Both the position numbers and the translations under genes were made by a program. The notes below the pieces were generated by a model. The model was given only the letters and a program-made list of their open reading frames with translations, had not been told where the DNA came from and searched no databases. DNA of 64,000 nucleotides from positions 5,504,001-5,568,000 of the forward strand of contig OY760937.1 in the NCBI GenBank assembly GCA_963664225.1. Direction: 5' to 3'. Origin of the DNA: Verrucomicrobiia bacterium. GTDB lineage: Bacteria; Verrucomicrobiota; Verrucomicrobiia; Limisphaerales; UBA1319. Shown here one piece after another: positions 8,869 to 60,796 of this stretch (its first letter is position 1; every line of letters starts with the position of its first letter).

Positions 8869-8876
8869 GCTGACAC

Positions 8877-10250: not shown

Positions 10251-10252
10251 GT

Positions 10253-28248: not shown

Positions 28249-28250
28249 CC
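28225..28250 (+). promoter_or_regulatory. Programmed -1 ribosomal frameshift signal (A9G slippery run plus small hairpin)
   Basis: A9G at 28225-28234 near the orfA end. The -1 frame is open from here into orfB. Stem-loop ggctg-ggaaa-tagcc follows immediately. Confidence 0.75.
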
Positions 28251-28286
28251 CATTGTGCGGTCAGGGGAGGTTCGGCGGATCAGGAG

Positions 28287-33731: not shown

Positions 33732-33760
33732 TTGCAAGGCAATCGATTGAGGGGTAGAAT
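33732..33760 (+). promoter_or_regulatory. Putative sigma70 promoter of the giant-protein operon
   Basis: TTGCAA-17 bp-TAGAAT, preceded by an AT-rich tract and 53 nt upstream of ATG 33814. Confidence 0.5.
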
Positions 33761-33813: not shown

Positions 33814-36800
33814 ATGAGTCATCAAACCTTATTCCTTTGTACCGCGCTTTTCGCAATGGCGACGCATGCCGCGCAACCGCCTTATGCCACGGACTTTGAG
33901 TCAGGCGTCGGAGCGGAATGGTCCCTGCCCAATGTCGATGCGAGCGAGATTGGATCTTTCAGCCGGTTTTCAGGGAGGTTCACCAATGACAAGCAGACGC
34001 TGACGTTGTCGAACATGACGGTGGGGGTTTCGTATTCGCTTTTCTTTGATTTTTACGCGATCGACACCTGGGATGGTTCTTATTCGGGCACGGGGGATTA
34101 TTTCAATGTGGGCGTGGATACGAACCAGGTTTTTCATTACACCTTCAGCAACTACAATGGGGATCCGCCGAGCAATCCTCAGAGTTATCCCGGGGTGCCG
34201 GATGTGGGACGGTACAATATGGGGTTTGCCGGGTATGTGGATGCGATTTACAGGAATATCGAGATCCCGTTTATCGCTTCGAACACGGTGGTACAAATCA
34301 GTTTTCAGGGGCAAAACCTGGAGGATATCAGCAACGAATCCTGGGGGATCGATAATGTCAGTGTGCGTCCCTCCTCGCAAACTCAAACGACCACGATTTC
34401 GTACACGACGCTGCCTCCGGATCATTCGACCAATGGGTTTGTGTTGGACGGTTTTGGCATTGGGGCGCTTCGCAATTTGCTTGGAACGACGGCGACCAAT
34501 GGGGCCAATTATTCTTTTCGCGAGGCCGGGGCGAATGGCGTGTTCGGGGATTCGGATGATGCCATCATTCCCCTGAACCTCAATTTTAATGGTTACAATA
34601 GCGTTAATTTCACGTTGACCAACGCGCCCTTGCAGCCGGGGAAATACCGGTTCGAGACGAAGGCGGGTCTGCTCGATACGAACAGTAATGCGGTGGCGGT
34701 GTTTGCGCGGGAGTTTGTGATCGCCAATCCGGTGGGAGGACAGATCGAAACTCCCAATAATGACTCGATTGCGACGGCGACCGCGCTGCCGATGGCTGAA
34801 AATCCAGCGGGATCGGGATTTTTCGCGGCGTTTGGCCTGGGATTGTTTTCGGCAAAGGGGGAGGCGGATTACTGGCGATTTGAAGGAGAGGCGCGGGACA
34901 AGTTGACCATTCGGCTGGAAGCCAACGCCAACGGAATTTATCCGCAACTTTATTTGCAGGACTCGACAGGGCAGACACTCAGTTCGGTGGGAGGGGATTA
35001 TTACGGGACAGCCCAGATTCAGAACTACGTCATCAGCAAGCCGGGGACGTATTTTGTGAAGGTGTGGAGCGACAATCAGACGGGGAAATACAAGTTGCGC
35101 GTGGATCAGTCGCGCGGTCCGCAATTGGAGCAGGAGGATAATAATGCGCAGAGCACGGCCAATGTGCTGGGGTTGACGTTCTCGACGGGGACTTACCAGG
35201 CGCGCATTGCGGGGGCGCTGACTGGAAACGATTCGGGCGCAGGGGATGTGTTTTCGCTGGGCACACTGAATGCGGGCAATTCCATCAGCGTAGCACTTGC
35301 CATGCCTGTGGGAGGTTCGCTGGTCACGAGTGCGGCCATTCTCTCGATTGAGGGAGCTGGCGCGGGGAATGGCGTTTCTCTGGCGACAAACACGGCTGGT
35401 TTTTTGAATTTCATCGTGGCTTCGAATGATTTGTATTATGTGCGGATTGCCACGGCCAATTCGAACTTGAATCTGAATGCGCAGTATTTGCTGAGTATCA
35501 CGGTGGTGGATGGGGTGCCGCCGGTGGTGGTTTCCACGAGCCTGCCGGATGGGGGACAGGCGACGACCAACCTGATCGACAAGATATCGGTTCTCTTTAG
35601 TGAAGACCTGGCGCAGTCCGTAAACAACATGGGTCAACGGTATTTGACTTACGGTGGACGGCGGTATGCGGTCACACCCCCGGCGTTGTCGTGGGAGGAT
35701 GCCGAGACTTACGCGCAGTCCATTGGAGGCCATTTGGTCACGATCAACAGTCCTCTGGAAAACGAGTGGATTCGAAGACAGTTCAGCTCGTATGGATCGG
35801 TGTGGATCGGATATACGGACAAGGCTGCGGAAGGCACCTGGGTGTGGGCTGATGGGAGTCCGACGAAGTACACGCATTGGAATTCCGGAGAGCCGAATAA
35901 TTCAGGAGGCAACGAGAATTATGGTGTCATGCTGACATCGGGGTTCTGGAACGATGTGAACGCAGCCACAACGGCCTATGGCGTGGTTGAGATTGGCACG
36001 GGGGGACTGGACACCGATGGGGACGGACTGGCCAACGCGATCGATCCGTTTCCCAACGATGCCCTCAATGGATTCGAATTGCGCGGGGCCGGGGCGGACG
36101 GTTTGTTTAAAACGGCTGACGATCGGGTTTATGCCCTTGTTGCTGATTCCTATTCCGGCGGATTGGCGGTCACCTTGCGGGTGACCGATGGTCCCTTGCT
36201 GCCGGGCAAATACCAATTCGTGCTGACGACTTCCATCAAGGACCGCGCTGGAAACAGCATGGCGGGAAATTATACCAACTCGTTTGTTGTCACGGCCCTT
36301 TCGGGTTATGTCACCTATAATGGGGCGGGGGATGTGACGCCGATCAGTGGCAGCGTAGCCGCGGCTCCGGATGGGTCGTTGGTCAATTATTCCGATGCTC
36401 CAACGGGCCGATATCCCCGGGGAATTGCCGCCGGACTGCTGGATGGGGGCACGAACCTGGATCTGGCGGTGGCCAATTACGGAAGCGGCGATGTGAGTAT
36501 TTTGCTCGGGGCGGGGGACGGGACGTTTTATCGGTCCACCAATTACGCCACGGGCAACGGAGCTGCCACAGTGACGATGGGAGATTTGAACAAGGACAAC
36601 CGGATGGATCTGGTTGTCGTGAATAACAGCGCGAATAATGTCACCGTTTTAATGGGCAATGGGGACGGGACATTTCAAAGTGGGACCAATTACGCGGTTG
36701 GATCGAGTCCGATCGGACTGGTTCTGCGCGATTTCAATGGGGACGGCAAATTGGATCTGGCGGTGGCCAATCAGTCCGCAAAGACGATCAGTGTTTTAAT

Positions 36801-39800
36801 GGGCAACGGGGATGGGACGTTCAAGACGGCGGTCAATTATGGCACGGGAAATCAGCCTTACTCGCTGGTGGCGGCGGATTTCAATGGGGACGGGAAAGTG
36901 GACCTGGCCGTGGCAAACTATGGGGAAAGCACGGTGAGCGTGCTCAACGGCAACGGGGATGGAACATTCAATGCGAAGGTGGATTATCCAACGGGCACAG
37001 GTCCGCGCGGCCTGGATGTTGGGGATCTAAATGGGGATGGGAAATTGGACCTTGTAACGGGCAACACGGATGCAGGCACCGTGAGCATTCTGGCCGGAAA
37101 TGGAGATGGAACGTTTGCGGCGAAGGCCGACTACGCATCCGGTGGGTCCGACGTTTATCAGATCCTTTTGGCGGACTTCAATGGCGACAATCGCCTGGAT
37201 GTGGTCGTGCCCGGTTTTGGCAACAGCAGGCTATGCATACTGCTGAATCGTGGGAATGGAACGTTGGAGTCGCCGATGACATATCCGGCAGGCAACAATG
37301 CGATATGGGCGGCGGCAGGCGATTTTAACGGAGACCAGCGCCTGGACCTGGCTGTGGTCAATTATTACGCGAGCACGGTGACCGTCCTCAATGGAGTTGG
37401 AGCCAAATTGCTGACGGAAGATCCGATTGGCAGCGGCATCCGCATCGGGGCCGGACGCGGGCAGTTGAAAAATCAGAGCGACGTGGATGTCTGGAATTTC
37501 ACGGCAAAAGCGGGCGATCTCGTGAGCGTGGCGGTGGAAGTTCCGGGCAATCCGGCTGCCAGCCAGCTTTATTACCGAATCTACAATGCGGCAGGGGATA
37601 CACTGACTGATTTTTATACCAGTTATAATGGCTGGGGCCAGTCCGCGCCTTACCGGTTTGCCGCCAGCGGAACGTATTGGATCGGAGTGCAGCGCTATTA
37701 TGATTACTTCAGTGAGTATCGGCTGCGTGTGACGCTGGCATCGCCACCGACCCAGATGGAGACCGAGGACAACAGCGACATCAGCCATGCCAACAAGCCT
37801 GCATTGGAGCTGGCCAGCGGGCATCTGACGGCGAGCGTCCTTGGATATTTCGGAGTTGGAGATGCGAATGGCGATTATTTCAATTTTGGCAATCTGGCCG
37901 CTGGCGCGACAATACAATTGACCATGAAACAGCCCTCCAGCAGCGGTCTGGCGGGTGTGTTGGGGATTTACGACGCGGGAGGCAACCTTGTGGCCAACGG
38001 CGCACCGGGGGCGACTCCGGTTTCCTACACCATTCCACCGGGGGGAGGTAGCAACTACTACGCGCGCGTAATGGGGGCGGGCATCTATGGGCTGCATGCC
38101 GCAAGCGGCAATTCGGCGCTGGTTTTCGATGGGAACGCCGACTTCGTAATGGTCACGAACGCGCCATCGCTGGACTTGAGCAATCAGTTTTCACTTGAGG
38201 CATGGGTTTACCCGCGAAACTTTGCGGGGCGTGACCGGGCTGTTATTTCCAAGGTGGGCGGCACCGGCGGCAACAATGGTTATCAATTGGTGTTCGGTCA
38301 GGACGGAAAGCTGTCCTTGCTTTTCAATGCATCGGGCGAAAGCTGGCCCGCCAACAGCGTGTCCACACCCCCGTTGGATATTTTGAATCGATGGACCCAT
38401 ATCGCGGCGACCTATGACAACGATACGATGCGCCTGTATGTCAATGGACAGCTAGCGGCGTCGAATACGATCGGCGCGAAGAGCGTGGTCAAGTCCCTGT
38501 CCAATCTGCGTATTGGTAATGACGACAACGCCTATGTCTTCTTCGACGGATTGATCGATGAAGTTCGGGTCTGGAACACGGCCCGGAGCGCGTCCGCGAT
38601 CCTTACGGGGATGAGTCAGAGTCTCACGGGAGCGGAGTCGGGGCTGGCGGGATACTGGCCTTTCAACGAGGGTTCCGGAGGTGTCGCCTCCGACTTGAGC
38701 CCCAATAAAAACTCGGGAATTCTGGGAAATGGGGTGGCCAGTCAACAACCGGCGTGGGTTGCCCTGCGCACAACCGATCAGCCCGCAGCGGGAATTTTTG
38801 CGCAGTACCTGATGGGGGTGGATATTGCGGACGCTGTGGCTCCGCTGATCACGTCGATTACCCTGCCTGCGGCCAATTCCACGAATCAGATCATGATCGA
38901 TCGATTCACGATCACCTTCAACAAGGACATGATGGCCAGCACAGTGACCAACAGCCTGAGTTACGATCTGCGTTCCGCCGGACCGGACGGCCTCTTCAAC
39001 ACGGGTGACGATGTGCTGTATCCGGTGATCAACCAAAACTATTCGAGCGGGCTTTCGTCGTCCTACCTGATCGGAGATGGTCCTCTACAGTCTGGAAGTT
39101 ACCGACTGACGGCAAAGACCGCGTTAAAAGACCGCTCGGGCAACGCGCTGGCAGCCGACTATAAACGGGATTTTGTCGTGGCCGGGGTGGCGGGTTTTAT
39201 TACGGAAAACCGTTCCAATGACACGCAAAATACCGCGACCTCTTTGAGCATTGCGCCCGGAAACTTGAACGACGGCTCTTTTTACCAAGGAGACAGCGTT
39301 GGGGTTGGCAGTCGTCCCTATTCCATTGTTTCGGGACGCTTCAACGGGGATAACCATTTGGATCTGGCCACAGCAAACAGCAGTGACGGCACCATCAGCA
39401 TACTGTTGGGAAGTGGATCGGGCACCTTTACCAATGCCACAAACATCAGTGTGGGAGGCAATCCTTACAATGTGGCGACGGGCGACTTCAACGGGGATGG
39501 AAAAGCGGACTTGAGTGTGACGAAGGACAGTCCCTATCAGGTGGTGATTCTCCTGGGCGCAGGCGACGGGACATTCCAGGCGTTCACGAATTATACGGTG
39601 GCCAACAGCCCGCGAGTGCAGGCGGTGGGAGATTTCAACAAAGATGGGAAGCTCGATATCGCGGTGGCCTGCCAGAGCGTCGATAAAGTGAGCGTTTTGT
39701 TGGGTAATGGAGATGGCACCTTTAAAACGAATGTGGACTATCCGGTGGGCAGCCAGCCGTATGGGATTGCGATGGGTGATTTCAACAAGGATGGAAAACT

Positions 39801-51800: not shown

Positions 51801-54408
51801 GACACCGGACGGATCCATCAACTTCACTGTGGCGGCAGTGCTGGTGCCCGAAGCACTCGGATCCAGCGCGAGCACCACATTCGAAGTGGCGGCCAGCCGC
51901 ATCTATTACCGGCTGGGCAATCCGGAAGTGCTGGAATCAGGTCCGATATCGGGCTCAATGTCATCGAGCCTGCGGCAGACAGATTATTTTGGAACGGCAT
52001 CGACGGATAAAACGGGTTATTCCAATGAGGATCCGATCGTCATTTCCGGGAAGGCCATTGTGCGATCCACGGGCCTGCCATTGGCGAATGCGCCTTTGAA
52101 GATTGGATTTGCAACCCGCGGGTTCAACTGGTTCAAGGAAACGACGACCGACAGTCAGGGCAACTACCAGTATTCCTATTCCACCATGCCTGGTTTTGGC
52201 GGCACCTTGATGTTGTGGGCCGCGCATCCGGATGTGTTCGACCAACTCAACCAGGCGCAAGTGTCCGTTTACAAGATGTATGCCACGCCATCCCGCGGGG
52301 AAATTCGGATGTCGAAGAACGACACGATGGATTTCAGCGTGAGCCTGGTCAATCCCGGGGACATTCCGTTAACTGGTTTTACGACCGAGTTTCATGCCTA
52401 TGTCGTGGATGGAACCAATTATAATGAAATAACGACGATCACCGGAACGAACCTTCTGGGAGCGGGATTCCAAGTGGAGCAGGGGAAGAACCAGACGGCG
52501 GGATTTCGATTGAAGGCGTCTCCAAACGCGCCTGACAAGGCAGTGATCGAGTTTGACGTTCGTTCCGAGCAAGGAGCGCTGGCGACGTTTGTGGGGAATG
52601 TGACCCTGTTGCCGGCCCTTCCGGTGCTTAACGTGGTCAATCCAGCCGTGGGCTATCTGGAGGTCAGTCTGGATCGCGGCAAGATATTGAGCCGACAGGT
52701 GACCGTTGTGAACGGCGGTCTCAAGGATCTCAAGGGGGTTACATTAGTGGCTCCGACCAATGTGACGTGGATGAACGTCAACCTGCCCGTGTCCGATGAC
52801 GGCACGATCCATCTGCCTGATATTGGGATTGGCCAATCGAACACCTTCAGTGTGGTGTTCACACCGCCGAGTGACACACCGCTCAATTATTACAACGACT
52901 TTATCGCGATTCGCGGGACCAATGCGCAGACGGAGTTTAAAGTGCGTTTGTATGCGCTGGTTACCTCCGATCAAAAGGGGTCGGTGCAATTCTTCGTGGA
53001 CAATAACCTTGGGCAGTCGGTATCGAATGCCACGGTGCGGTTGCGCAGCAGTTTGCTGCAATTGGAGCTGACACCATCGATTACAGACGGCAACGGCCTT
53101 GTGACGGTGGATGGGTTGCAGGAAGGCGATTGGTCGTGGCAGGTGAACGCGCCGGGGCACAGCAGCACGGTGGGGACCATCACGGTGGTGCCTTCGCAGA
53201 CCGTGCAGGTGCATACGCGGCTGGCCAAGAGCCTGGTGACGGTGACATTCAATGTGGTTCCAGTGCCCTACACGGACAAATACGAAATCAAGATCGAGCA
53301 AACGTTTGAAACCCATGTTCCGGTGGGTGTGCTCGTGGTCGATCCGCCTTTCAAGGATTTCAAGAAGATCGATTCCGGATTCGAGGCAAACTGGATTGTC
53401 ACCGTGCAAAACTACGGTTTGCTGGAGATGACCGATGTGACCATCGAGGGCGCGGAAACCGGGGGCGGCAAATTGACACCGCTCATCGAATTCATTCCGG
53501 TTCTTTTGCCGATGCAAAAAGTCGAAGTGCCTTTCACATTTGCCTATAACGCTTCGGCAGGAACCACGACCAACACGACCCAGTCATTGAAAAGACAGCG
53601 AATACCCGACTCGGACGATCTTGCCCAGTGCGTTGCGGGGATGATGCCTTTTGGCAGCCTTGCGGATCCCAATATCTTCAGGGGACTGGCTGCCATATTC
53701 CAGGCGAGAGAGAGGTGCATATCCGATCTGGATCCGCAGACCGCATTGGCGTCCGTGGGTATCATATTCGCCATAGGCCAGATCGCAGGCGCGATCGGCA
53801 GCGCCCAGGAATTCATCGTCGGGGCCATTGGGGGATTGATCAGTTGCATCATCGGCAATTTTCTTCCCTTACCCGACAGCGGCCCGTTCTCGTCATACCC
53901 GGGACCGCGATCAGACAACGCATTCCAGATTGGCAATTTGCAGTGCTTCGATGCGGACACACCGGTATTGATGTCGGATGGAACCTCAAGGCCGATTGCA
54001 TCCATCAAGGTGGGCGACCGGGTGAAGACCGGTTCCTACGCTGGAAATGTGGCCGAAGTGCGCGAAGTATTTACGCGCGACCAAACACCCGTGCGAAAGC
54101 TGACGATCAGCGATGGGCTGGAGCATGGAGTGGATCGGGAGATCATTACAACGGACGAACACCTGTTCTGGGTGGACGGGCGCGGATGGATGGCCGCATG
54201 CAATCTGAAAGGCGGGGATTACCTTGTGGATTCAAATAACGAGCGGATCAAGGTGCTGACCAATCACAAGCTGGACAAGGCGATACGCGTCCATTCGTTC
54301 CAGTTAAAAGGCGACAGCGCCTTTTATGCAAACGGGGTGCTTGTGCGCGATATGTGCGGTTTGGGTGGAGTGAAACAGGTCGCCGCAGGGAAGGGGGTGG
54401 CGCAATGA
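33814..54408 (+). CDS. Giant (~6860 aa) exported multidomain surface protein with a C-terminal Hint domain
   Basis: Uninterrupted 20.6-kb ORF with Sec signal MSHQTLFLCTALFAMATHA. Contains a C-type lectin (EPN/WND), three FG-GAP blocks (GDFNGDGKLDLAVAN), PPC-like and LamG domains, CARDB, InlB-B-like and FN3/Ig repeats, and a Hint domain starting CFDADTPVLMSDG. Confidence 0.92.
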   Translation: MSHQTLFLCTALFAMATHAAQPPYATDFESGVGAEWSLPNVDASEIGSFSRFSGRFTNDKQTLTLSNMTVGVSYSLFFDFYAIDTWDGSYSGTGDYFNVGVDTNQVFHYTFSNYNGDPPSNPQSYPGVPDVGRYNMGFAGYVDAIYRNIEIPFIASNTVVQISFQGQNLEDISNESWGIDNVSVRPSSQTQTTTISYTTLPPDHSTNGFVLDGFGIGALRNLLGTTATNGANYSFREAGANGVFGDSDDAIIPLNLNFNGYNSVNFTLTNAPLQPGKYRFETKAGLLDTNSNAVAVFAREFVIANPVGGQIETPNNDSIATATALPMAENPAGSGFFAAFGLGLFSAKGEADYWRFEGEARDKLTIRLEANANGIYPQLYLQDSTGQTLSSVGGDYYGTAQIQNYVISKPGTYFVKVWSDNQTGKYKLRVDQSRGPQLEQEDNNAQSTANVLGLTFSTGTYQARIAGALTGNDSGAGDVFSLGTLNAGNSISVALAMPVGGSLVTSAAILSIEGAGAGNGVSLATNTAGFLNFIVASNDLYYVRIATANSNLNLNAQYLLSITVVDGVPPVVVSTSLPDGGQATTNLIDKISVLFSEDLAQSVNNMGQRYLTYGGRRYAVTPPALSWEDAETYAQSIGGHLVTINSPLENEWIRRQFSSYGSVWIGYTDKAAEGTWVWADGSPTKYTHWNSGEPNNSGGNENYGVMLTSGFWNDVNAATTAYGVVEIGTGGLDTDGDGLANAIDPFPNDALNGFELRGAGADGLFKTADDRVYALVADSYSGGLAVTLRVTDGPLLPGKYQFVLTTSIKDRAGNSMAGNYTNSFVVTALSGYVTYNGAGDVTPISGSVAAAPDGSLVNYSDAPTGRYPRGIAAGLLDGGTNLDLAVANYGSGDVSILLGAGDGTFYRSTNYATGNGAATVTMGDLNKDNRMDLVVVNNSANNVTVLMGNGDGTFQSGTNYAVGSSPIGLVLRDFNGDGKLDLAVANQSAKTISVLMGNGDGTFKTAVNYGTGNQPYSLVAADFNGDGKVDLAVANYGESTVSVLNGNGDGTFNAKVDYPTGTGPRGLDVGDLNGDGKLDLVTGNTDAGTVSILAGNGDGTFAAKADYASGGSDVYQILLADFNGDNRLDVVVPGFGNSRLCILLNRGNGTLESPMTYPAGNNAIWAAAGDFNGDQRLDLAVVNYYASTVTVLNGVGAKLLTEDPIGSGIRIGAGRGQLKNQSDVDVWNFTAKAGDLVSVAVEVPGNPAASQLYYRIYNAAGDTLTDFYTSYNGWGQSAPYRFAASGTYWIGVQRYYDYFSEYRLRVTLASPPTQMETEDNSDISHANKPALELASGHLTASVLGYFGVGDANGDYFNFGNLAAGATIQLTMKQPSSSGLAGVLGIYDAGGNLVANGAPGATPVSYTIPPGGGSNYYARVMGAGIYGLHAASGNSALVFDGNADFVMVTNAPSLDLSNQFSLEAWVYPRNFAGRDRAVISKVGGTGGNNGYQLVFGQDGKLSLLFNASGESWPANSVSTPPLDILNRWTHIAATYDNDTMRLYVNGQLAASNTIGAKSVVKSLSNLRIGNDDNAYVFFDGLIDEVRVWNTARSASAILTGMSQSLTGAESGLAGYWPFNEGSGGVASDLSPNKNSGILGNGVASQQPAWVALRTTDQPAAGIFAQYLMGVDIADAVAPLITSITLPAANSTNQIMIDRFTITFNKDMMASTVTNSLSYDLRSAGPDGLFNTGDDVLYPVINQNYSSGLSSSYLIGDGPLQSGSYRLTAKTALKDRSGNALAADYKRDFVVAGVAGFITENRSNDTQNTATSLSIAPGNLNDGSFYQGDSVGVGSRPYSIVSGRFNGDNHLDLATANSSDGTISILLGSGSGTFTNATNISVGGNPYNVATGDFNGDGKADLSVTKDSPYQVVILLGAGDGTFQAFTNYTVANSPRVQAVGDFNKDGKLDIAVACQSVDKVSVLLGNGDGTFKTNVDYPVGSQPYGIAMGDFNKDGKLDLVVGDYNGDQVSVLMGKGDGTFDSAVNYPTGGGPRAVAVGDMNGDGTLDIVTANSQGNSLSMLEGKGDGTFLAKRDFGMTIYDTYQVLLTDLNGDGRSDVVIAAYGAGRLGVLLNRGNWAFENYEDYSMPSGIGVVAGDFNEDLRTDLAVASYSNNKVTVFSGNNNELLAEDPAGSGIRSSAARGNVSGVNDVDYWSFSAKSGDILALSVETPGNPAASQLYYTVYYPNGAVVSEFAADSYYGWGNLSPVRLNVSGTYTVGVRRYYDYVGEYRIRVTLAPDKYQMEVEPNNDIAHANAPTLVLANGHQTANVVGSIGEGDGSGDYFRLGNLSGGTLIHLGLTQPTVSPLQDILTIYDTNGTIITNSAIRGTSLDFTIPTGGDGAYYARVQSANPGAVQFSGGNDYVNVGNWSPGTQWTVEAWVKPNAAPSGRHGIAGGFNSCADWGIVLQDGQFGIATKPPSGCSITIPSGEAVTLNQWYHVAATCDGTNAQLYVNGVLKATGPVSVNYSANGNGTWIGSEACCGNETFSGLIQEVSIWERPLSGAEITSGMSHALAGTETGLAGYWKLNEGVGTVALDSSTRNRNGTLVNGPVWARSDLAGFASAALPGTVIFDRLYAIYALNIDLSDSQPPSIVAVSLPDEGSTNTTIVDRFTINFNKDMMATTVTNAATYELRSSGANGIFDTADDEIYTISCDGYTSGLTASYRISDGPLQPGFYRFTIKTALQDRTGNPLPQNYTRKFKVEGVDGFILETRNNNTLGQATSLSRARTATPDGSFRQAENVNVENNPRFAGVADLNGDGKLDMVVANSGAGNVSVLLGVGDGTFQPRTNYATGSGPTGVALADYDKDGKIDAVVANYNANTITLLQGNGDGSFQAITNITTGNHPLYLISGDFNRDGKPDFGVTCNGENKIYVYIGHGDGTFDAPSIYSTGTNPEILAAGDFNGDGKPDLAVGNYRSANVSVLLGNGDGSFQAPVQFATGAGPAAVAVGDLQNKGKLDLVVANYDAGTLSVLRGDGAGNFGTNTDYSTGGTQPYILTLADINGDGFLDVVVPNSGSGNVAVMLNLGDGTFAAPVTYTTGYRPFQVVAKDFNQDGRLDFAAVCYGNAYVSLYLGNDTEYLAEDPTGSGIRTSASRGRMTTSTDADYWSFTGKAGDWLIVAVDTPGTPAGSALDFRVDGPNGANVTDFQGGYYGYGQCAPVQLPFTGTYTILVKKYYDYQGEYRMRVTTAPSSYQLEQEDNSAINRANTLNLAAANQHRAANVLGYIGTGDDSGDYYSLGNLGAGTTITLKTQRPLTSGLWPAMAIYKTGGTPVTNSVGGITNLSYTIPSGGDGAYYIGVAKSDFGPRAGLRLDGSQAVGYGSWLTNQAFSVSMWIKPDASQTSYADIMDNNHRGGVNWVIQQDGGNVNSYSFGVADGGLPPTFYITPGNWHHLMVSRDAARLDRVYLDGQVVSSTTGTGDINYDGNQFLRSGRWGGGGRNWNGVIDEVHIWDHALTALELQRDIGYATAPGDAGIIGFWKFNEGSGSVVKDYSAFARDGAIEGTPQWGSFAEQPYDPLFAQYILKVDLSDTLPPVITSVSLPDEGSTNSAILDTFTVAFSKDMLASTVTDPGSYEFRGAGDDGILGTGDDILYTIQCDGYGSGLSAAYHIMDGPLQPGLNQLTISTAMKDRSGNPIAAPFIRTFAIGSIGGFAFETRNNNTAATATPITLIEDPTGFKSGGGRGNLSSASDVDFWKFDGHTNESVVLSVEIPDHPGGSQLHYQIFAPNGNNLADFTSDYYGSGLSSVLLLPTNGVYTIRVEHYYNYFYEYRIRLGVAVPPMQMEAEGNDDIAHANAIALAPGGQGRYGSMAGCIRTSGDLDYYSIAGITNGSTVFVSVRLPSTSRLSPVVSLYDKNNQYLAEAPGGRPNDGVAQVRITQDGAYYAVVRGSEGVGGITEQYVVDFQVIPSGNVNFPNLQVTSLIPPTGLITSGGSISFGFSVTNIGSVATPAAAWSDRAVLSQNIILGDEDDISLGVFPHAGALAPGAGYTVTRTAQIPDGVSGPYYLIVQTDVGNAVNEFLFEADNTTVSDHTFNITLADYVDLKVEDLNVAGPDNAGSYTITWKTANRGKADSTQNFYERILVKNLTSGEVLLDQEALTTNALPVNSTLARTNSVKTSTAGNYLVRVTTDSRNNIYEYDATSHANAERNSVDGAFQITQIYNIAAGANPAGAGTITGAGQYVIGSVAELTAIPVTTDKPYSFLNWTENGTFQTASNTYRFSVTRDRQLTANFALPVFQIAAVSVPAVGGTVTGAGTYAYGVTNTLKAIANDGYRFTNWVENGSAISTQTSLTFGVYTNRALIARFVEANVFHVVTTATLPAGVAAVSGAGTYNNGQTVSIVAPAAVTNGPMAYTFKRFTQNGNPFGNAPSISKTFSTLDSTNIAIVAEYDGRSILPVVVNVSVNYTNPVPLTTNYVLTFQFDRSMRGTPEPQIVLTNAQSAVQPVVASGGQWSTTASNNDTYSTPPIVLTTGMDGTNQVWISKAQDLSGLTLDRTNVYAAMVDATPPVQPVFSLVSSNASSVVLGWSGYAAPQDLAGFRVYLVQTNFTTLAGLSPITGLAPSARNFQVSNLSLDTDYYIAVIASDIAGNSAGTVTPLKIKLPTTLPPKVTIDVAAVGPNSARISWTGYDTSALFGFSGFRLYMKDSPFAIVNGMTPSASFDAQTRQAQVDALDRSKKYYFAVVGVNATNGFIPVVTTRQWSDPYAGNIAANLTIGGIDQTVDIYQTMVVTNGVTLTINAGTTLRFAPGSGIVVDQGLIMAQGTALDPIVLTSSSDTNGGSPAAGDWAGLVVRGNAANASKLTQVWVKYGQGLVLDNATPVVDAFSAVYNAPSGLRLTNGAALTTKDALISLNQVGAMQSDTSRLMVWNSVIKNNATNAWARGSLGLVATQNWWGTPLQADVVSRLTGNVDARGFLESEPLLTPAAGIVGGLTRVSSQSLELKFACRTAESMRASEDSAFKGTFFAPFASRQIFQLSDGGGHKSIFVQFRSTTGDTNTPLLLQVEYVTSGPQIINFNLAEGQVISRPLLVTGIATAVLGIQSVEFYADNVLADSVTTGIYSRRWDMRTLSPGIHRVKLLARDKGGSIATEERNVTINPTPAPAPFIVTPASDGIQAQTTVSVAGTAEPNIGLRLTDNGTLLATSVADATGGFKFDNMVLVEGANELVVIAYDDIGSSRSITRRIVLDTGAPSAVVLDAPIYVPNFGVNLSWNYAKVGERPSKFQVFWAKTPFISTNQAIGKSLVLSLTTYAVQGLADGTYYFGVLGYDDAGNHSPMSSLVSLKYDATAPSFNISYDKSPPVGVGPVQVTLTASEPLTGTPGLTLKPANSTPISLNLTNVSASSYVTAIVISNTTLSGLAIWNVSGQDVSGNVFNGAPAGQPFNIDVIQPVGSIATLPASPVQTLVPTNVSVNLTLSKPAKTGTPPIIKFTPPIGAEVGVTMSGTGTNWVGLLPLQTSMGSGFGQFAMTAVDALDNTGTNITSGAVLEIYNTALPSAPETPTNFVARTIVGGLVRLTWNAVTNADIYRLYREPGSNTTAPTALVADNLSTNGLDDLPSADGRYTYAVTASRRGSESNPSKIVVGVSDRTPPGAPTNVAAELASSGVQISWRPPAGEKPFKYLVYRNGVLIGSTSTGTNLVDAPPRGVASYTVSSADVTGNENLSTPATIDMLVGAVEHLAVLVNSGQAPVLSWTSSDTTAIGFNVYRNGIKQNASALTVASYTDNLPVGNDAIEYVVRAVNAKSEESAPRVVKIYSVTLDLLANAGGDTVSKPLVTRYFDNYRVSVTNLTVNNVFPLETVELRRVAGGGVTTTQTIPVGQSVASGNWYNRDVVFASATTVDAQSMRMRVIQSSDLGGSSVIYQRTFDFASVLEPSLMMSLSASQPPLAGGLTDFDVRLYNRGYADINVIVVRENGAAPGDVYVAVKNALGQEVSRTAYRGTPKGTFFMNDGRGYVRVTPDGSINFTVAAVLVPEALGSSASTTFEVAASRIYYRLGNPEVLESGPISGSMSSSLRQTDYFGTASTDKTGYSNEDPIVISGKAIVRSTGLPLANAPLKIGFATRGFNWFKETTTDSQGNYQYSYSTMPGFGGTLMLWAAHPDVFDQLNQAQVSVYKMYATPSRGEIRMSKNDTMDFSVSLVNPGDIPLTGFTTEFHAYVVDGTNYNEITTITGTNLLGAGFQVEQGKNQTAGFRLKASPNAPDKAVIEFDVRSEQGALATFVGNVTLLPALPVLNVVNPAVGYLEVSLDRGKILSRQVTVVNGGLKDLKGVTLVAPTNVTWMNVNLPVSDDGTIHLPDIGIGQSNTFSVVFTPPSDTPLNYYNDFIAIRGTNAQTEFKVRLYALVTSDQKGSVQFFVDNNLGQSVSNATVRLRSSLLQLELTPSITDGNGLVTVDGLQEGDWSWQVNAPGHSSTVGTITVVPSQTVQVHTRLAKSLVTVTFNVVPVPYTDKYEIKIEQTFETHVPVGVLVVDPPFKDFKKIDSGFEANWIVTVQNYGLLEMTDVTIEGAETGGGKLTPLIEFIPVLLPMQKVEVPFTFAYNASAGTTTNTTQSLKRQRIPDSDDLAQCVAGMMPFGSLADPNIFRGLAAIFQARERCISDLDPQTALASVGIIFAIGQIAGAIGSAQEFIVGAIGGLISCIIGNFLPLPDSGPFSSYPGPRSDNAFQIGNLQCFDADTPVLMSDGTSRPIASIKVGDRVKTGSYAGNVAEVREVFTRDQTPVRKLTISDGLEHGVDREIITTDEHLFWVDGRGWMAACNLKGGDYLVDSNNERIKVLTNHKLDKAIRVHSFQLKGDSAFYANGVLVRDMCGLGGVKQVAAGKGVAQ
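53944..54351 (+). other. Hint (intein-like) domain within the giant protein, 136 aa
   Basis: Block A C-FDADTPVLMSDG..RPIASIKVGDRV; block B ITTDEHLFWV (TxxH); C-terminal FYANGVLV-RD instead of ..VLV-HN. Confidence 0.88.
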
Positions 54409-57400
54409 AAACGACTCCATCGATTTTAATTCGAAATCTCATGAAGCCCATTGAACGCATACTGAATGTTGCCCCTAAATGGATTGGCTCATGCGTTTGC
54501 GGTTTGTTTCTATACTGCGCCATGACTGCTTCGGCACAGCAGGAACAGCGCGGACTCTGCGCTCAGGTCAAGATCGTGATCCTTCAAGAATTGACGTTGG
54601 AGCGCATCGGTTTTGAGGCCACTCTTGAAGTGACCGATAATGACGGGAATGATCCGATCACAGACTTTTTCGCCGATCTCACGTTCGAGAATCCGGCGTT
54701 GTCCACGAATGGCGTGGCCAACGATGCCTCATCCCTGTTTTTCGTGCGCGCGCCGGAACTGCAGAATATTTCCGACGTGAATGGCGGGGGAGTGATCGGG
54801 CCCACAAAGAAGGCGGTGATACGCTGGTTCATCATTCCCAAGATCAAGGCTGGTGGAATCACCCCTGATGGAGTCCGTTATAAAGTGGGCGCCAAGCTCA
54901 GCGGGAAGTTTCAGGGAATACAATTGCCCAGCGATGTGTTGCAGGCCCTGCCGGACACGATTGTGGTCAGGCCCGAGCCGCAATTGGAAATCACCTATTT
55001 CCAACCGAGAGATGTGCAAGGTGACAATCCTTTCACGCCCGAGGTGGAAAGCCCGATTCCATTTTCCATCGGCGTGCTGGTAAAGAACTCAGGCTATGGC
55101 ATTGCGCACAAACTTAAAATCGCGTCGCAGCAGCCGCAAATTGTGGAAAACAAGCGGCATCTATTGTTGGTGGCGCAATTGCTTGGGTCGCGGGTTAATG
55201 ACGCGCCGCTCGATAATGCGAACCTGACCGTGGTGCTGGGCGATTTAAACCCGGGGGAGGCGCAGAAAGCCTCCTGGGACATGATCACATCGCTCTCGGG
55301 AGAGTTTACCGATTTCAAGGCTTCGTTCACCCATGCTTCGGACCTGGGTGGTGAGGAAACCTCGGTGATCAAATCGATCAACGCGTATTTCATCGCCCAT
55401 GAGGTTCTTAACGACATGCCGGGCCGCGATAAATTGCTCGATTTTCTCGCGGACACGGATCGTGACGAAAACATGATACCGGACGCGCTTTACGAAAGTG
55501 AGGGGAATGTCGAGCCCGTCAACTATCTGGCGAATACCACCATCGATGCGATATCGGGCACACCCGGTGCCTACAGGATCAGCCTGGATGCGGATCGTTC
55601 CGGCTGGTGCTATATGAGGTTGAACGATCCCGGGCAAAACCGGTTGAAAATCGAGAGCATCGTTCGTTCGGACGGCAAGGTGATCAACCCCCATAATATG
55701 TGGACCAATACCCGGTATGCCAAAGTGACCAATGCCCGGTCCGATTATCTCAACTTGTTCGATCTCGTTGATCTCAAAAAATACACTTATACCGTGCAGT
55801 ATGCTCCATCGAGCATCGATACGACACCGCCTGCGACCACTTTGCGGTTTGTCGGCACTTCCGCTTATTCCAACGGGAGATACTACATCACGCCCGATGC
55901 TCAAATGTACTTCACAGCGGAAGATCAAAGTCCGGTCAGTATTTATTACAGCCTGACAAACAGCGCGTTTATACCGGCGTATCCATTTGTGCTGCGCACG
56001 CCGGGAGAATACGCGCTCAAGTATTACGGGCAGGATGCCAGTGGGAATCGGGAGGCAACCAATTCCACCGTGCTTGTGGTTGGGAACGCGGGTCCGACTT
56101 TATTAAGCTTCCTTGGCGCGACGCAGGCGGTGATTACCTCCGGAGACGCGTTGTCCGTTCGCCCGAATTCCGCCGACATTCGTTACCGCGCGGGATTCAG
56201 CCCCGTGCCGGTGGATGCCTATCTGGATATTTTCCAGGGAGTCATGGGCTGGCCTGTGGTTTCAGGGGTGCCATCGTCGCCCACTGCCGCCACTCTTGCG
56301 CATTTGGTCATCCGCGGCGACTGGGTGGATTTTTACAAATACAGTCTGGATGGCGGCGCGTGGAGCGCTGAAAAGCCGGTGGCGCAAATATTGCATTTGC
56401 TCAATCTGTCCGCAGCCCAGCATAGCGTGAAGGTGCTGGGACGCTCCGCATACGGAGACTATGGCGCGGAAACCAATGCGGTGGCGGTTCAATGGACCGT
56501 TGATCCAGCGGCTCCGCCGACCCAGATCACGGGCACGCCGGCCACCCCAACGAGCGATCTTTTTGCGACGCTCAAAGTTGCAGGCACGGGAGTTAATTTG
56601 TACCGGTGGACATTGAGCAACGGCTATTATCGCGCGCCCGCCGGTGTGGCTGTTCCTCTTTCGATCACGAATCTGGGAGCGGGACCACAAAACATTTCTG
56701 TCATCGGCCTGTACTCAGGCGCGTGGCAGCCAACGAATAATCCAACAACGGCTGCCTGGACGGTGGATCCGGCTTACGGCTCCGATTATTCATCCAAGAC
56801 GCTTGTGCGCAGTGTGACCAATCGGAATGTTGGATTCCTGCCGCAGAGTTTTGCCTGGGATGGCCGGAACGAGCAGGGGACGATCATGCCTCCCGGGTGG
56901 TACACCGTGCGGCTGACACTCAAGGATCAGGTGGGGCGGTCCACCTACGCGACCAAGCTGGTGCAACTGGGCGAATTCGCCGGGTCTTTCAATGCGCTCG
57001 CCGCCGCCAGTCGAGGACCTGAGAATCCGAATGCGCGCGGACGTTGGGCCGTCTGGCAGGATCAAAGCTCGGGCAATTCGCAAATCTATGCGCAGGATTT
57101 GCTGATACCCGGCAATGCCCCGTTCGGTTTGACGACCAGCACTCGCAGCCAGGAGAAGCCAAGAACAGATGGCCGCTTTGTGGTCTGGCAGTCCCGGCAA
57201 ATCAATGGCGGGTGGGACATATGGATTCGCGATCTATTGTCGGGCGGCCAGGCCTCAGCACTGACCTCGACAACCGATGTCGATGAAACCAATCCAACGG
57301 TCGATTGGCCCTGGGTCGTTTATCAGTCCAAGTCGTCCCTGGACGCCAAGGCGCCGCAACAGTTGAAGGCGGTGAACCTGGTAACAGGGGTCACTCAATC

Positions 57401-58436
57401 GGTTTCAGACAGCACGCAGGATGAACTGGATCCGGACGTGCAGGCGGGCCGGGTGGTCTGGCAGGATTCCCGGGATGTGGGAGCCGGGGAGATCTACTTT
57501 AAGAACCTTGAGAGCGGCGAACTGAGGCGTTTGACGACTAATGCCTTTGGCCAGTATCATCCCGCCATCCACGGCAACGAGGTCGTGTGGCAGGATAATC
57601 GCAACGGCCAGGTGGACATTTACGCGTTCGACTTGCTTCGGGACACGGAGGTGCGGATCACGCAAACCGCCGAAAACGAGACCCGGCCGTTCATCGATGG
57701 GCCGTGGTGCGTTTGCGAGGAGGATTCCCTGGGCGTCTCGGTGGCCAATATACGGCTCATCCATCTGCCTACGCGACAAATCGTGCCGATCACGCGCACG
57801 ATGACCACCAAGTCGCGTCCGGCATTGGCCGCCAGTCACGTGGTGTGGCAGGATAGCGCCGGTGGGCAGAATACGATCATGTCCGCGGAGTTGCCGTCGT
57901 TGCAGCCCGTGTTCCAGAATCAGAATATCGTGGCGGTGACCGAGGCGCTGGCTGCCAATCAGCATGATGCCAGAACTTTGCTGTCGCGATGGAATGCGCA
58001 GGCCGGTGTGACGGAAGTGACGCGAGTCGCTTCGTTGACGCCCACGGTTACTTTTGAGACGGCTCGATGGAACAAAGGACAATTCAGCGGAACCAATTTC
58101 GTGCTGGCCGGCGGTTCGTTTTTGTGGGTGAAGTTCGATACGAATCAAGTCATCGACCTGGGGGTCAATGGCCGGGGCTTTGCCGATCTGAGCGCGGGTG
58201 TCAATGCCATCAGCTACACCGCGTTTCCCAATGATTATTCCGCGTATCAAATGGTGCGGCAGTTGGGTGTGGACAAGGTCAATGCGATCCGAATTCTCGA
58301 ATCGGAATCGGGTCGCTGGCTGGTGGCCGAAGTGCGAAACAGCCGGTTGATTGGTGATGATTTTCCGATCCCGCGCGCGGCGGTGGTCTTTGTGGATATG
58401 GATTCGGCAGTGACGCAGTGGCGGCCGGAACCCTGA
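54405..58436 (+). CDS. Large exported partner protein (1343 aa): N-terminal beta-rich domain, Ig-like repeats, FlgD-Ig-like domain, beta-propeller repeats
   Basis: ATGA overlap with the giant gene stop; signal ending ASA-QQ. FAWDGRNEQGTIMPPGWYTVRL (FlgD-Ig) and repeated VVWQDxR..GxxDIY units (Methanosarcina-surface/TolB-like propeller). Confidence 0.85.
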   Translation: MKTTPSILIRNLMKPIERILNVAPKWIGSCVCGLFLYCAMTASAQQEQRGLCAQVKIVILQELTLERIGFEATLEVTDNDGNDPITDFFADLTFENPALSTNGVANDASSLFFVRAPELQNISDVNGGGVIGPTKKAVIRWFIIPKIKAGGITPDGVRYKVGAKLSGKFQGIQLPSDVLQALPDTIVVRPEPQLEITYFQPRDVQGDNPFTPEVESPIPFSIGVLVKNSGYGIAHKLKIASQQPQIVENKRHLLLVAQLLGSRVNDAPLDNANLTVVLGDLNPGEAQKASWDMITSLSGEFTDFKASFTHASDLGGEETSVIKSINAYFIAHEVLNDMPGRDKLLDFLADTDRDENMIPDALYESEGNVEPVNYLANTTIDAISGTPGAYRISLDADRSGWCYMRLNDPGQNRLKIESIVRSDGKVINPHNMWTNTRYAKVTNARSDYLNLFDLVDLKKYTYTVQYAPSSIDTTPPATTLRFVGTSAYSNGRYYITPDAQMYFTAEDQSPVSIYYSLTNSAFIPAYPFVLRTPGEYALKYYGQDASGNREATNSTVLVVGNAGPTLLSFLGATQAVITSGDALSVRPNSADIRYRAGFSPVPVDAYLDIFQGVMGWPVVSGVPSSPTAATLAHLVIRGDWVDFYKYSLDGGAWSAEKPVAQILHLLNLSAAQHSVKVLGRSAYGDYGAETNAVAVQWTVDPAAPPTQITGTPATPTSDLFATLKVAGTGVNLYRWTLSNGYYRAPAGVAVPLSITNLGAGPQNISVIGLYSGAWQPTNNPTTAAWTVDPAYGSDYSSKTLVRSVTNRNVGFLPQSFAWDGRNEQGTIMPPGWYTVRLTLKDQVGRSTYATKLVQLGEFAGSFNALAAASRGPENPNARGRWAVWQDQSSGNSQIYAQDLLIPGNAPFGLTTSTRSQEKPRTDGRFVVWQSRQINGGWDIWIRDLLSGGQASALTSTTDVDETNPTVDWPWVVYQSKSSLDAKAPQQLKAVNLVTGVTQSVSDSTQDELDPDVQAGRVVWQDSRDVGAGEIYFKNLESGELRRLTTNAFGQYHPAIHGNEVVWQDNRNGQVDIYAFDLLRDTEVRITQTAENETRPFIDGPWCVCEEDSLGVSVANIRLIHLPTRQIVPITRTMTTKSRPALAASHVVWQDSAGGQNTIMSAELPSLQPVFQNQNIVAVTEALAANQHDARTLLSRWNAQAGVTEVTRVASLTPTVTFETARWNKGQFSGTNFVLAGGSFLWVKFDTNQVIDLGVNGRGFADLSAGVNAISYTAFPNDYSAYQMVRQLGVDKVNAIRILESESGRWLVAEVRNSRLIGDDFPIPRAAVVFVDMDSAVTQWRPEP

Positions 58437-58473
58437 ACGCGATCGAAAAATATTTGAGAGGAAACAATTTGAA

Positions 58474-59295
58474 ATGAAAAAGATCATCAATTACGCAGGC
58501 CTGCCAGCCGTCGCTGCCGTCTGGCTGCTGGCGGGCGTCTGCCAGGGCCATGGCGCAACGGTCGCGGATTTGCAGAAGCGCCTGGCGGAGGGCAAGCCCG
58601 TGACGATCATCGATGTGCGGCCCAACGAACTGTATCGCAATGGGCATATCGAGGGCGCGATCAACATTCCGGCGAATCTGTTGTCTGCGAAAAAGCTTCC
58701 CGCGCTGGGACAGGTCATCGTTTGCGCGGAAGGACTGGGTCGGGACAAAGTGGAGGAGTCGGTGAACTGTCTCAATGGAAAAACCGGGATTCAGGCGGAG
58801 GCGCTGGATGGCGGTTTTGCCGCATGGGAAACAGCGCAGGGCGGCAATACCCGGCCCATGGGATTGCAGCCGGAAAGCCTGGTCCACATCACGTACGATC
58901 AACTCAAGACAACGAAATTGACTGATGTTGTTCTGGTGGATCTGCGGCGGAACAGTCCCGCCACGCGTCAAAGCGTGAACAGCGCGACCAATGTTTCTGA
59001 AGCCGCGTTGACGGATCTCAGCAAAGAGTTTCCGGGGGCGGTGATTTCGCCATCCCCATTCAGTCTGGCAGGCGCAAAACAATCCAGTGCCAACCGGCGC
59101 GAATCCGCACCCTTATTGGTGCTCATAGACACCGGCAACGGAATCGCTGAAGAGACGGCGCGCAGCTTGCAGGCCAATGGCTACCGGAGGGTTGTGATTC
59201 TGGCAGGCGGTGAGCAGGCGCTGGCACGCCAGGGACAACCCGGATTGCAACGCATGGGATTGGGATCGGTGATGACGAGTGGCGCGGATCATTAA
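58474..59295 (+). CDS. Exported tandem rhodanese-like protein
   Basis: Signal peptide. Domain 1: IIDVRPNELYRNGHIEGAINIP...LDGGFAAW. Domain 2: VLVDLR...LAGG. Confidence 0.8.
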   Translation: MKKIINYAGLPAVAAVWLLAGVCQGHGATVADLQKRLAEGKPVTIIDVRPNELYRNGHIEGAINIPANLLSAKKLPALGQVIVCAEGLGRDKVEESVNCLNGKTGIQAEALDGGFAAWETAQGGNTRPMGLQPESLVHITYDQLKTTKLTDVVLVDLRRNSPATRQSVNSATNVSEAALTDLSKEFPGAVISPSPFSLAGAKQSSANRRESAPLLVLIDTGNGIAEETARSLQANGYRRVVILAGGEQALARQGQPGLQRMGLGSVMTSGADH

Positions 59296-59309
59296 AAAGG
59301 ACCATAGCG

Positions 59310-60728
59310 ATGATAAAACGAAAATGGGGTTTTTCATACGGGAATGGGGCATTAAGAGTTCTTGCCTTATCCCTACTCCTGAATCTTGCCGGCATGATTG
59401 GCGCGGCGGGGGCGGTGTCGATATCCGGCGTTCAGGCTGTGAATGTCAGATCCGCCGGATTTGCCCTGGTGTGGTCCGTGGCGGGCGCTTCTGATCCAGT
59501 GGTGTCTATTTTTGCCGATCCGCAGGGCAAGACCAACCTGGCTGGGATTGTTGGGATCGAATGGTTCCCCTTGAATGGTGGGAATACCATCGGGGATAGC
59601 GTGTATGAAAAGCGACAGACTCAAACCGCCACACGCGTGGAAACCAAAAAGGTGGGACTGGTCATGGCGCAAATATCAGGCTGCAAGCCGGCGACGCAGT
59701 ACTATTATCGCGTGGGCGCGAAGGTTAACGGCGTGATCGCGGCACAATGGCCGGATTCTGGAGATTTGCCTGCGATTACGACCGCAGAATCCAACGGTTT
59801 TATCATCGACTCCAAACAACTTCTGCTGACCATTCCCGGTGTGCGCACATATGGGCGCATCATGACGTTGTCCACCACGAACGCAGCATATCCGCTGGCG
59901 GCGGTGGTAGGGGATGGAGCGGACACCAACCAGGTTTACTTCAATCTGTCCGAGCTGCTGTCAAAAGACGGGAAGACGAATTATGCAGGATCGCTGGACG
60001 AGCGGTTGCTGGTTGAAATGCTGGGACCCTCGCTTGGACAGGCCACGCAAAGTTTCTACCTGGGATATTCCTCCAATTTTGTGGTGGGAACAGCGGAGGA
60101 GCGCCTCTTTGTTTTGGACTCCCTGTCCCTGACTTTAAGTGAAAATATTTTGTATGCAGGCAGCAATGGGTTTCTGGGCATCTATTTGAAGTGCAATGCC
60201 GCGATCACCAATGTCACGGTGGATCTGGATCTGCCGTTGAGCCGGTTCACCAATATCAATGTTGTGCCGCTTGCGGTTCAGGGCGGACAGGCCACACTGG
60301 AGGGGAATCGAACGCTGCATCTGAATTTGCGGGTGGATTCGCATCAAACTTACTCCCAGCCGACCCTGGTGGCCCGACTGGCCTATCAGACCGTGCTGGA
60401 TCAGATTTCGGCCATTGTGCCTGTCACCATTACCGGCATGACCTCGACAAGGCCCGATGGATTGCCGCTGGCCGCAGTTACCGGGTTTGGGAGTCGGATC
60501 ATCATTGTCGCAAAACAGCCCATACTTGAGGCGATGCGAGGGGCAGAGACTCCGAGGTCACTTATCGTTTACGGACGCGAAGGGGCGCAGTATCGCATTC
60601 AGAGTTCAACAGCGCCGGAATTAAAGAATTGGCCCGATTACATGAGCGTGACCCTGACCAATATCGCGCATCGTCTTGACGGTTTGACTCCCACCAACTT
60701 GAATCGTTTCTATCGTGCTCAACAGTAA
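59310..60728 (+). CDS. Exported protein with FN3-like and cohesin-like beta domains and a C-terminal Y.I.SS...W...RFYR module
   Basis: Signal peptide; ISGCKPATQYYYRV (FN3/purple acid phosphatase N-like); C-terminus YRIQSSTAPELKNW...NRFYRAQQ. Confidence 0.7.
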   Translation: MIKRKWGFSYGNGALRVLALSLLLNLAGMIGAAGAVSISGVQAVNVRSAGFALVWSVAGASDPVVSIFADPQGKTNLAGIVGIEWFPLNGGNTIGDSVYEKRQTQTATRVETKKVGLVMAQISGCKPATQYYYRVGAKVNGVIAAQWPDSGDLPAITTAESNGFIIDSKQLLLTIPGVRTYGRIMTLSTTNAAYPLAAVVGDGADTNQVYFNLSELLSKDGKTNYAGSLDERLLVEMLGPSLGQATQSFYLGYSSNFVVGTAEERLFVLDSLSLTLSENILYAGSNGFLGIYLKCNAAITNVTVDLDLPLSRFTNINVVPLAVQGGQATLEGNRTLHLNLRVDSHQTYSQPTLVARLAYQTVLDQISAIVPVTITGMTSTRPDGLPLAAVTGFGSRIIIVAKQPILEAMRGAETPRSLIVYGREGAQYRIQSSTAPELKNWPDYMSVTLTNIAHRLDGLTPTNLNRFYRAQQ

Positions 60729-60796
60729 TCGGGCTTGATTTTGGGCGCAGCCCGTGCGAAAGCTGCCGGTCAGCAGAAATGCGGTGGAACCGGCTG

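Follow-up and report, generated by a model that had tools for sequence, protein, structure and literature searches.

A conserved four-gene unit carrying a giant Hint-ending protein in a Verrucomicrobiia genome

The four-gene locus and its conservation

A 64,000-nucleotide stretch of a Verrucomicrobiia bacterium genome (contig OY760937.1, positions 5,504,001 to 5,568,000; the window) was analyzed for four consecutive open reading frames (ORFs), i.e., genes A, B, C, and D. The genome is a 5.78-Mb single contig, and the closest named homologs were in Verrucomicrobiota. By ORF translation of the window, the four genes all lie on the + strand and span 26.9 kb. Gene A (33814-54408, +) encodes 6,864 aa counted from ATG, whereas the start given by the ORF tool was a GTG at 33781. 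It is followed by gene B (54405-58436, +; 1,343 aa), gene C (58474-59295, +; 273 aa), a secreted tandem rhodanese-fold protein, and gene D (59310-60728, +; 472 aa). The TGA stop of A and the ATG start of B overlap as ATGA, and the B-C and C-D gaps are 37 and 14 bp, as described in the original prediction. Signal peptides, i.e., a basic start, a hydrophobic core, and an Ala-type site, were recognized by eye on all four products and recur in homologs. The length of A is not an assembly artefact because independent relatives (6,795-6,868 aa, 85-91% identity over the searched region) share the same ending.

The neighbourhood of the genes was compared in two sets of loci. The metagenome set was 80 loci picked by B alone, with the loci having enough flanking DNA as denominators, and the genome set was 26 loci of the same order picked by the A end. 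The loci of both sets are related and not independent draws. In the metagenome set, the Hint domain of A was found upstream of B in 62/71 loci, the X module of A in 56/62, C in 63/70, D in 53/58, and all four in 44/49. In the genome set, all four were present in 23 of the 24 informative loci, and C in 24/24. The co-occurrence put forward by the original prediction as a check on the unit was thus borne out in B-selected and A-selected loci. The metagenome misses were solo B copies (one assembly), two A genes without Hint (L141 and L168), and one divergent D. In two genome loci lacking D downstream, D was placed directly before A; over both sets, the D misses include two loci with D directly upstream of A and two more with a divergent D detected by profile. 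The solo B loci inspected (L175, L180, L186, L188, and L196) lie amid housekeeping genes, four of them between hem and pgk-like genes by eye.

Among 300 genomes from the same order, at least 25 contain the A end; Pedosphaera parvula, Fontisphaera persica, Gammaproteobacteria, and Bradymonadia are among the named carriers. X, the Y domain of B, and the Hint of A are each single-copy in the genome. No description of the operon or of X-Y was found in the literature searched, beyond which subscription papers and supplements could still list these proteins, and the portions of PMC13274458 and bioRxiv 2023.11.21.568195 that were available do not describe the operon. The four-gene unit is real and conserved, and it is unnamed in the literature searched; the lack of a match to any named system agrees with the original prediction.

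The boundary of the unit rests on conservation and not on DNA signals, because housekeeping genes closely trail D and no + strand terminator was predicted after D. These are a co-oriented, overlapping HAD-NUDIX fusion gene, folB, and tilS (60779-63764, +), which begin 50 bp past D. Upstream of A, the sigma70-like site TTGCAA-17-TAGAAT (33732-33760, +; 9/12 match) had been taken as a plausible promoter. One such site was found where 0.6±0.7 were expected, i.e., chance level, and it was set aside as evidence.

Predicted pairing of A with B and the fused relatives

Pfam matches of A were C-type lectin, FG-GAP, LamG, Big_5, CARDB, InlB-B, fn3, and PT-HINT. The order is C-type lectin, FG-GAP propellers, LamG, an immunoglobulin (Ig)/CARDB/InlB-B/fn3 array, the X module, an apolar segment, and Hint. 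In homologs, the N-terminal part varies and the C-terminal part is conserved. RHS, RTX, autotransporter, TpsB, and sortase families were not matched in A-D, the Pfam scan of A-D gave no SLH domain, and no ABC exporter was found among the scanned window genes; most of these absences had already been noted from the sequence. The missing RHS/YD repeat core in A-D was judged with the same library that finds RHS in sister loci. The features of a type I secretion system (T1SS) RTX adhesin of LapA type were also lacking, i.e., there was no RTX match, the signal peptide was Sec-type by eye, and no exporter was among the scanned window genes.

In the predicted fold of the last 479 residues of A, a carboxypeptidase-regulatory-like domain comes first, followed by a hairpin of lower certainty, an Ig-like domain, helices of low confidence, and Hint. 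The X beta-hairpin (A 6472-6505; 53227-53328, +) is the best-conserved part of this end, with a mean pairwise identity of 0.72 vs 0.22-0.50 elsewhere. In the fold of A only, the predicted local distance difference test (pLDDT) of the hairpin was 61-84, and that of the preceding domain was 92-97.

Gene B encodes a signal peptide, the Y domain, an OmpL47-type/FlgD-like Ig domain, a TolB-like propeller, and an uncatalogued C-terminal domain, with weak matches only for the Ig and propeller parts. Y (B 49-473, approximately 430 residues; 54549-55823, +) was predicted as three beta-sandwiches (pLDDT 88), and its near-invariant Cys52 was present in 149/150 family representatives. Searches of Y against Pfam, PDB sequences, PHROGs, and PADLOC gave no match. 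Fold searches returned only single Ig-like domains (best Z 8.3, root-mean-square deviation 2.6, 100 aligned; Foldseek TMq at most 0.23), a viral library did likewise, and the ESM Atlas matches at 0.9 or above were unnamed clusters only. The HAP2, integrin, and flavivirus rows of the fold search are generic and show neither kinship nor novelty. Mature B begins Gln-rich before Cys52 (54537-54560), with at least two Gln in 110/113 homologs, and this may be a pyroglutamate or cross-linking site.

Structure prediction of the A-B pair, which the original prediction had suggested, points to binding. Co-folding of the C-terminal 479 residues of A with Y scored 0.87 vs 0.00 for the best of three controls; split-gene halves tend to pass this test, and the predictor may have learned the fused family. 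The score mark was reached by 116/157 solved and 2/215 mismatched pairs, rates that are only approximate with own alignments. The runs agreed in at least 81% of contacts, with partner pLDDT of at least 68. In the predicted interface, B 49-80 and 295-311 face A 6472-6505, with a further contact to B from A 6633-6636, the stretch that holds Cys6635. In the best pairs, the X hairpin was inserted antiparallel between the N-terminal strands of Y and its residues 301-308, a case of strand complementation. Because Cys6635 of A and Cys52 of B are both in predicted interface segments, a disulfide between them may be formed. No solved complex resembling X-Y was found in PDB sequence and fold searches. 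Hint was considered as an A-B tether whose cleavage frees A, and this was rejected since Hint is absent from the listed interface residues, the unlisted ones being uncertain.

The Y family comprised 3,639 representatives (50% identity clusters) at E ≤ 0.001, and Y matches were found in 22/401 genomes of the phylum. Among the best 150 representatives, Y was near the N-terminus in 122 and internal in 28, 24 of these with X. Type I is the arrangement of the window operon, with A, B, C, and D split. In type II, a signal-peptide-Y protein lies beside a giant with X and then an RHS core, often near a DUF1573-rhodanese akin to C, and RHS is in some cases followed by Hint and a C-terminal tip. Type III is a single chain of X, a variable Cys-rich insert, and Y. 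X precedes Y in 32 bacterial ORFs; the middle domain of D was found in 11 of these and an FYR tail at the end of 21 (both described below with D). By homology, the order in the fused giants is X, Y, D middle domain, and FYR tail. Because these parts share single chains, A, B, and D can be read as one fused giant in three pieces. The A-B assembly is well supported as a prediction by three computational lines, i.e., co-occurrence, fusion, and structure prediction.

Tandem X-Y units were found in Saccoglossus XP_006822956.1 and Halocaridina KAK7084501.1, with inserts often bordered by RxKR-type sites. Around animal inserts, these may be furin sites. The invertebrate giants P0121 and P0122 have tandem X-Y units, two or three per protein, and a membrane-anchor-like stretch closes P0121. 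An unrooted quick tree built from 71 Y domains had three groups, i.e., type I with 22 rows (support 100), type II together with the remaining N-terminal Y (95), and the fused copies together with those of animals (99). One long-branch row was left unplaced, and one N-terminal row grouped with the fused copies. P0073, with B-C in a single ORF, and L140, with A-B likewise joined, were rejected as fusions; an internal signal peptide is kept in both and they look frameshifted.

A transglutaminase-like gene was found in 3/7 type II loci inspected and beside 1/111 type I loci, there as part of a neighbouring cluster. In L049, L050, L053, L055, and L169:13047-14937, the RHS-type rhodanese-fold protein, DUF1573-fused where scanned, ends in CxC/CxxC and mostly adjoins a transglutaminase-like gene.

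Between X and Hint of A lies an apolar helical segment (53629-53847, +), which is bounded by Cys6606 and Cys6678, has Cys6635 in its middle, and is followed by a Gly/Ser/Pro linker. It is the most variable part of the A end (mean identity 0.22), and a 19-residue Kyte-Doolittle (KD) value of at least 1.6 was reached in 33/83 A proteins vs 3/83 for X. Among 12 pairs with Y of at least 0.90, the segment was 0.75-0.98 identical in nine and 0.28-0.44 in three. A polybasic processing site after X was found in some copies only, without conservation, and was dropped.

This segment and the type II loci bear on the purpose of the assembly. The same assembly could be a contact-dependent weapon, in which the X-Y collar presents a payload. 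In sister loci this would be an RHS-caged toxin, and here the apolar segment, which would be unmasked by Hint cleavage and damage target membranes. This reading fits the sister loci, where X precedes RHS, in some cases with Hint and a C-terminal tip, and where a signal-peptide-Y gene and frequently a rhodanese related to C are adjacent. The variable and apolar nature of the post-X segment and the likewise variable, Cys-rich X-to-Y insert of the fused giants also fit it. However, the listed loci showed neither an immunity-like gene nor an orphan tip array, and many copies of the segment are acidic rather than cationic. A swapped toxin tip is also disfavoured because the segment mostly tracks relatedness. 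We regard the weapon as rather unlikely and prefer an adhesin-like surface complex. The original prediction had read the locus as a dedicated extracellular assembly; its co-occurrence and the predicted A-B binding stood, but A, B, and D as fused-giant segments and the RHS toxins behind X in sister loci had been missed.

The Hint domain, C, D, and the surrounding genes

The Hint domain (Cys6711-Asp6846, plus an invariant Cys6848; 53944-54357, +) is followed by a 16-aa tail and no cargo. The PT-HINT profile gave 36.3 bits vs a cut-off of 27.7. In 86 non-redundant copies, Cys1 was conserved in 86, the block-B Thr in 84, the His of TxxH in 86, and the second Cys (Cys6848) in 86. These conserved residues agree with the autoprocessing claimed from the sequence, and the N-terminal Cys and block-B TxxH are those of class 1 inteins. 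The intein-terminal position (Asp6846 by structural alignment), counted on 83 aligned copies, was Asp in 65, Gln in 8, Glu in 7, His in 3, and Asn in none. The Cys is at +2 and not +1 after it, and the Asn-Cys/Ser/Thr end of class 1 inteins is therefore missing. At the alignment-placed block-F position, T (54), S (17), or N (13 of 86) was found in place of Asp, and the penultimate His was in 55/86. Behind the second Cys are 7-64 aa with no conserved columns beyond Cys-Gly and no cargo (83/83).

The best fold matches of the Hint model were 2lwy (a bacterial intein-like, BIL, domain) at Z 20.6 and 6tmm at Z 19.7; Hedgehog scored Z 17.8. Model residues 326-463 align with 1at0 258-402. The A-type BIL ends in His-Asn, as stated in the part of PMC7765530 consulted. 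No His-Asn and no C-terminal toxin were found in A, and the next gene is the conserved B and not an immunity gene. Because there is no terminal Asn and only a short unconserved tail, this Hint is neither a canonical intein, an A-type BIL, nor a full Hog. In the sections of PMC12054796 available, C143 of Hedgehog forms a branched thioester and can be disulfide-bonded with C1. The conjugation of BIL2 to lysine, a precedent of Hint-driven isopeptide ligation, is given in an excerpt of PMC8616854, and the portion of PMC2362128 consulted mentions another secreted bacterial Hint subgroup. By analogy, the Hint of A is closest in logic to Hedgehog, and thioester chemistry is likely.

The Hint might instead be excised by splicing, as in an atypical intein, so that linker-x-Cys-tail would remain with a free terminal Cys for disulfide tethering. 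The two A proteins without Hint (L141 and L168) both end in linker-Cys-11 residues-stop, and these alleles are compatible with splicing as well as with deletion. Asp- and Gln-ending inteins exist, and Asp and Gln are the leading residues at the terminal position here. Against this, there are only two such alleles, and their Cys could be leftover Cys1. The missing Asn and block-F Asp, the penultimate His in only part of the copies, and the Cys at +2 likewise speak against splicing, and we hold it to be improbable. P0318 was excluded as a further Hint-less allele; it ends after a Gly run, with a possible frameshift.

The rhodanese fold of C was recognized by PF00581 in two stretches (E 7.6e-17), and C homologs retain rhodanese structural motifs. 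Cys was found at position 84 in 19/88 homologs, at 85 in 1/88, and at neither in 68/88, the register of the site being ambiguous. The second domain has Asp in 85/88. The C of the window has Cys84 at the site or adjacent to it (codon 58723-58725), so that activity of this single copy is possible. Catalysis cannot be the conserved role of C because the candidate-site Cys is present in few homologs, and a sulfurtransferase role, to which the fold named in the original prediction points, is not supported.

The lack of a conserved catalytic Cys in C also fits the idea that A and B are an adhesin pair and that Hint and C were left over from an RHS-toxin ancestor and now have structural roles only. 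Loci without Hint and with solo B exist, and RHS loci contain related rhodaneses and Hints. The four catalytic-type Hint positions, however, are 98-100% conserved in a domain with a mean identity of 0.40, and C is kept in most metagenome loci and in all informative genome loci. We hold the relic idea to be very unlikely.

Gene D encodes a signal peptide, an fn3-like N-part, a middle domain (60120-60494), and a C-terminal FYR domain (60507-60725), with hardly any family match in the domain scans. The RFYR tail had been treated as a mark of the operon, but it is common to more than 100 proteins of the genome. The FYR motif ends 145/9,716 genome ORFs vs 24-46 at control offsets, and an FYR profile found 108 genome ORFs, 100 of them at most 20 residues from the end. 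No model of the tail was found in Pfam or NCBIfam, and Por_Secre_tail of the type IX secretion system (T9SS) matched 0/20 FYR tails. The SprA translocon gave no match in the genome, though control genomes gave none either. In split loci, the motif was at the end of A in 0/88, B in 0/106, C in 0/93, and D in 46/71. In L146, L154, L159, and L169, D ends in a domain like the C-terminus of B without FYR tail, which suggests a lineage-specific tag swap. Cohesin identity of the middle domain was proposed by eye only and was rejected with no Pfam match in 18 D proteins; in ESM Atlas, fn3-like leads were found for D, all at most 0.80. Another overlapping giant pair of 3,591 and 4,304 aa (G000:C1:5230848-5254291), the second FYR-tailed, has no X or Y.

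A cluster like a two-secretin type II secretion system (T2SS)/type IV pilus was found at 2834-11998 (+), 22 kb upstream of the operon, with tandem secretins, PilM-like, and GspE/PilB ATPase genes. Seven secretin matches were found genome-wide, two of them inside the window. In locus L240, a GspE-like ORF (by eye) precedes D by approximately 7 kb. Directly upstream of A is a secreted DUF5703/GH95-like glycoside hydrolase (31236-33542, +). An integrase-core (rve) ORF with short overlapping upstream ORFs (27862-29123, +) is probably an insertion sequence element, and a small ricin-type beta-trefoil lectin-domain gene was found at 23446-24000 (-).

Proposed assembly and comparison with known systems

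We lean, by a small balance, to the reading that the conserved unit builds one secreted adhesin-like surface complex, including the X-Y lock, the D tag, the C helper, and a self-cleaving Hint. Co-occurrence and gene order were observed directly, and D is kept even when moved before A. After Sec export, the X hairpin would complete a beta-sheet in Y, as predicted, and the Cys6635-Cys52 disulfide may lock the pair. D likely supplies the surface tag via its putative sorting FYR tail. Since the FYR tail is missing from A, B, and C, their arrival or retention at the surface would depend on D as a carrier, and C, without a conserved catalytic Cys, would be a non-catalytic chaperone or docking factor. 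The interchangeable lectin/propeller N-terminal half of A would bind glycans or surfaces.

The Hint steps are drawn from Hedgehog. An N-S shift at Cys6711 would be followed by transfer to Cys6848 or by a redox lock between both, and an external nucleophile would then attack the thioester. The cleavage would attach or expose the apolar tip of A. The favoured outcome would be transfer to an acceptor with an amine or hydroxyl, which could belong to the envelope, to a partner, or to a bound target; plain hydrolysis is placed second, and splicing out is the least expected product.

Several observations weigh against this reading. The adhesion may not be the purpose, because the nearest sister loci are toxin systems. 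B without A, C, or D is present in 8 loci of one metagenome assembly, and at least 6/71 D proteins end in a different domain. The specific disulfide is weakened because Cys6635 is replaced in 10/83 A proteins whereas the Cys of B is invariant. The second Hint Cys is approximately 2 residues out of the C143 register, there is no sterol-recognition region after Hint, and Hint is dispensable at L141 and L168, where A lacks it. In our reading, the unit would work as a giant adhesin built from separate pieces, on a scaffold that RHS toxins also use, and we infer the roles of C and D, the Hint product, and the purpose along with it.

A wider view is possible but doubtful. X-Y may be a so far unrecognized payload-presentation collar of bacteria and invertebrates. 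It would hold an RHS toxin in one lineage, in fused forms a protease-flanked Cys-rich insert, and in the window operon an apolar hairpin armed by the Hint. The Hint, as a new H-D-x-C class, may be a secreted one-shot ligase fixing a 700-kDa lectin array to the envelope or a bound target.

The analysis gives anatomy, a predicted interface, and residue-level tests for common unannotated giant surface proteins, i.e., the 3,639 Y clusters with the hemichordate and shrimp copies. In the cultured and harmless hosts Pedosphaera parvula and Fontisphaera persica, the export of FYR-tailed proteins in Verrucomicrobiota, extracellular Hedgehog-like thioester chemistry in bacteria, and the sharing of a scaffold by RHS toxins and adhesins become testable. 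If true, a cargo-less, Asn-free ligating Hint could serve protein engineering.

By its features, the unit is outside inteins, Hog proteins, RHS toxins, active rhodaneses, and T1SS/T9SS substrates. Donor-strand-complemented pili use beta-strand complementation between subunits. Such inter-subunit complementation is predicted for A-B; no usher or polymerising/repeating pilin was found among A-D or scanned neighbours. The umbrella toxin particles of Streptomyces are secreted and multi-protein, with lectin domains and Hint; unlike them, A-D have no ALF repeats or toxin domain.

For the Hint, the Hedgehog Hog is alike in its secreted precursor, Gly/Ala-Cys-Phe cleavage site, TxxH, absence of a terminal Asn, and an essential-looking second Cys near the Hint end. 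In contrast, A has this Cys approximately two residues later, the unconserved 7-64-aa tail in place of a sterol-recognition region, no conserved D46 equivalent (by eye), and a 6,700-aa adhesin array as its N-terminal part. The BIL-A/PT-HINT domains of polymorphic toxins and the ciliate BUBL BIL2 are the best sequence and fold matches, whereas A has H/R/Q-D-x-C for the His-Asn end, nothing behind Hint, and no immunity gene.

The RHS loci with X-Y, an undescribed sister type, share X, the signal-peptide-Y protein, the related rhodanese-fold protein, and the Ig/fn3 stalk with the unit. However, A-D have no RHS shell or toxin tip, and their Y is in a separate clade. The fused X-Y giants of Planctomycetota-Verrucomicrobiota-Chlamydiota (PVC) bacteria, other bacteria, and invertebrates share X, the variable Cys-rich insert, Y, and often the D middle domain and FYR tail, but they are one chain, and those examined have no Hint.

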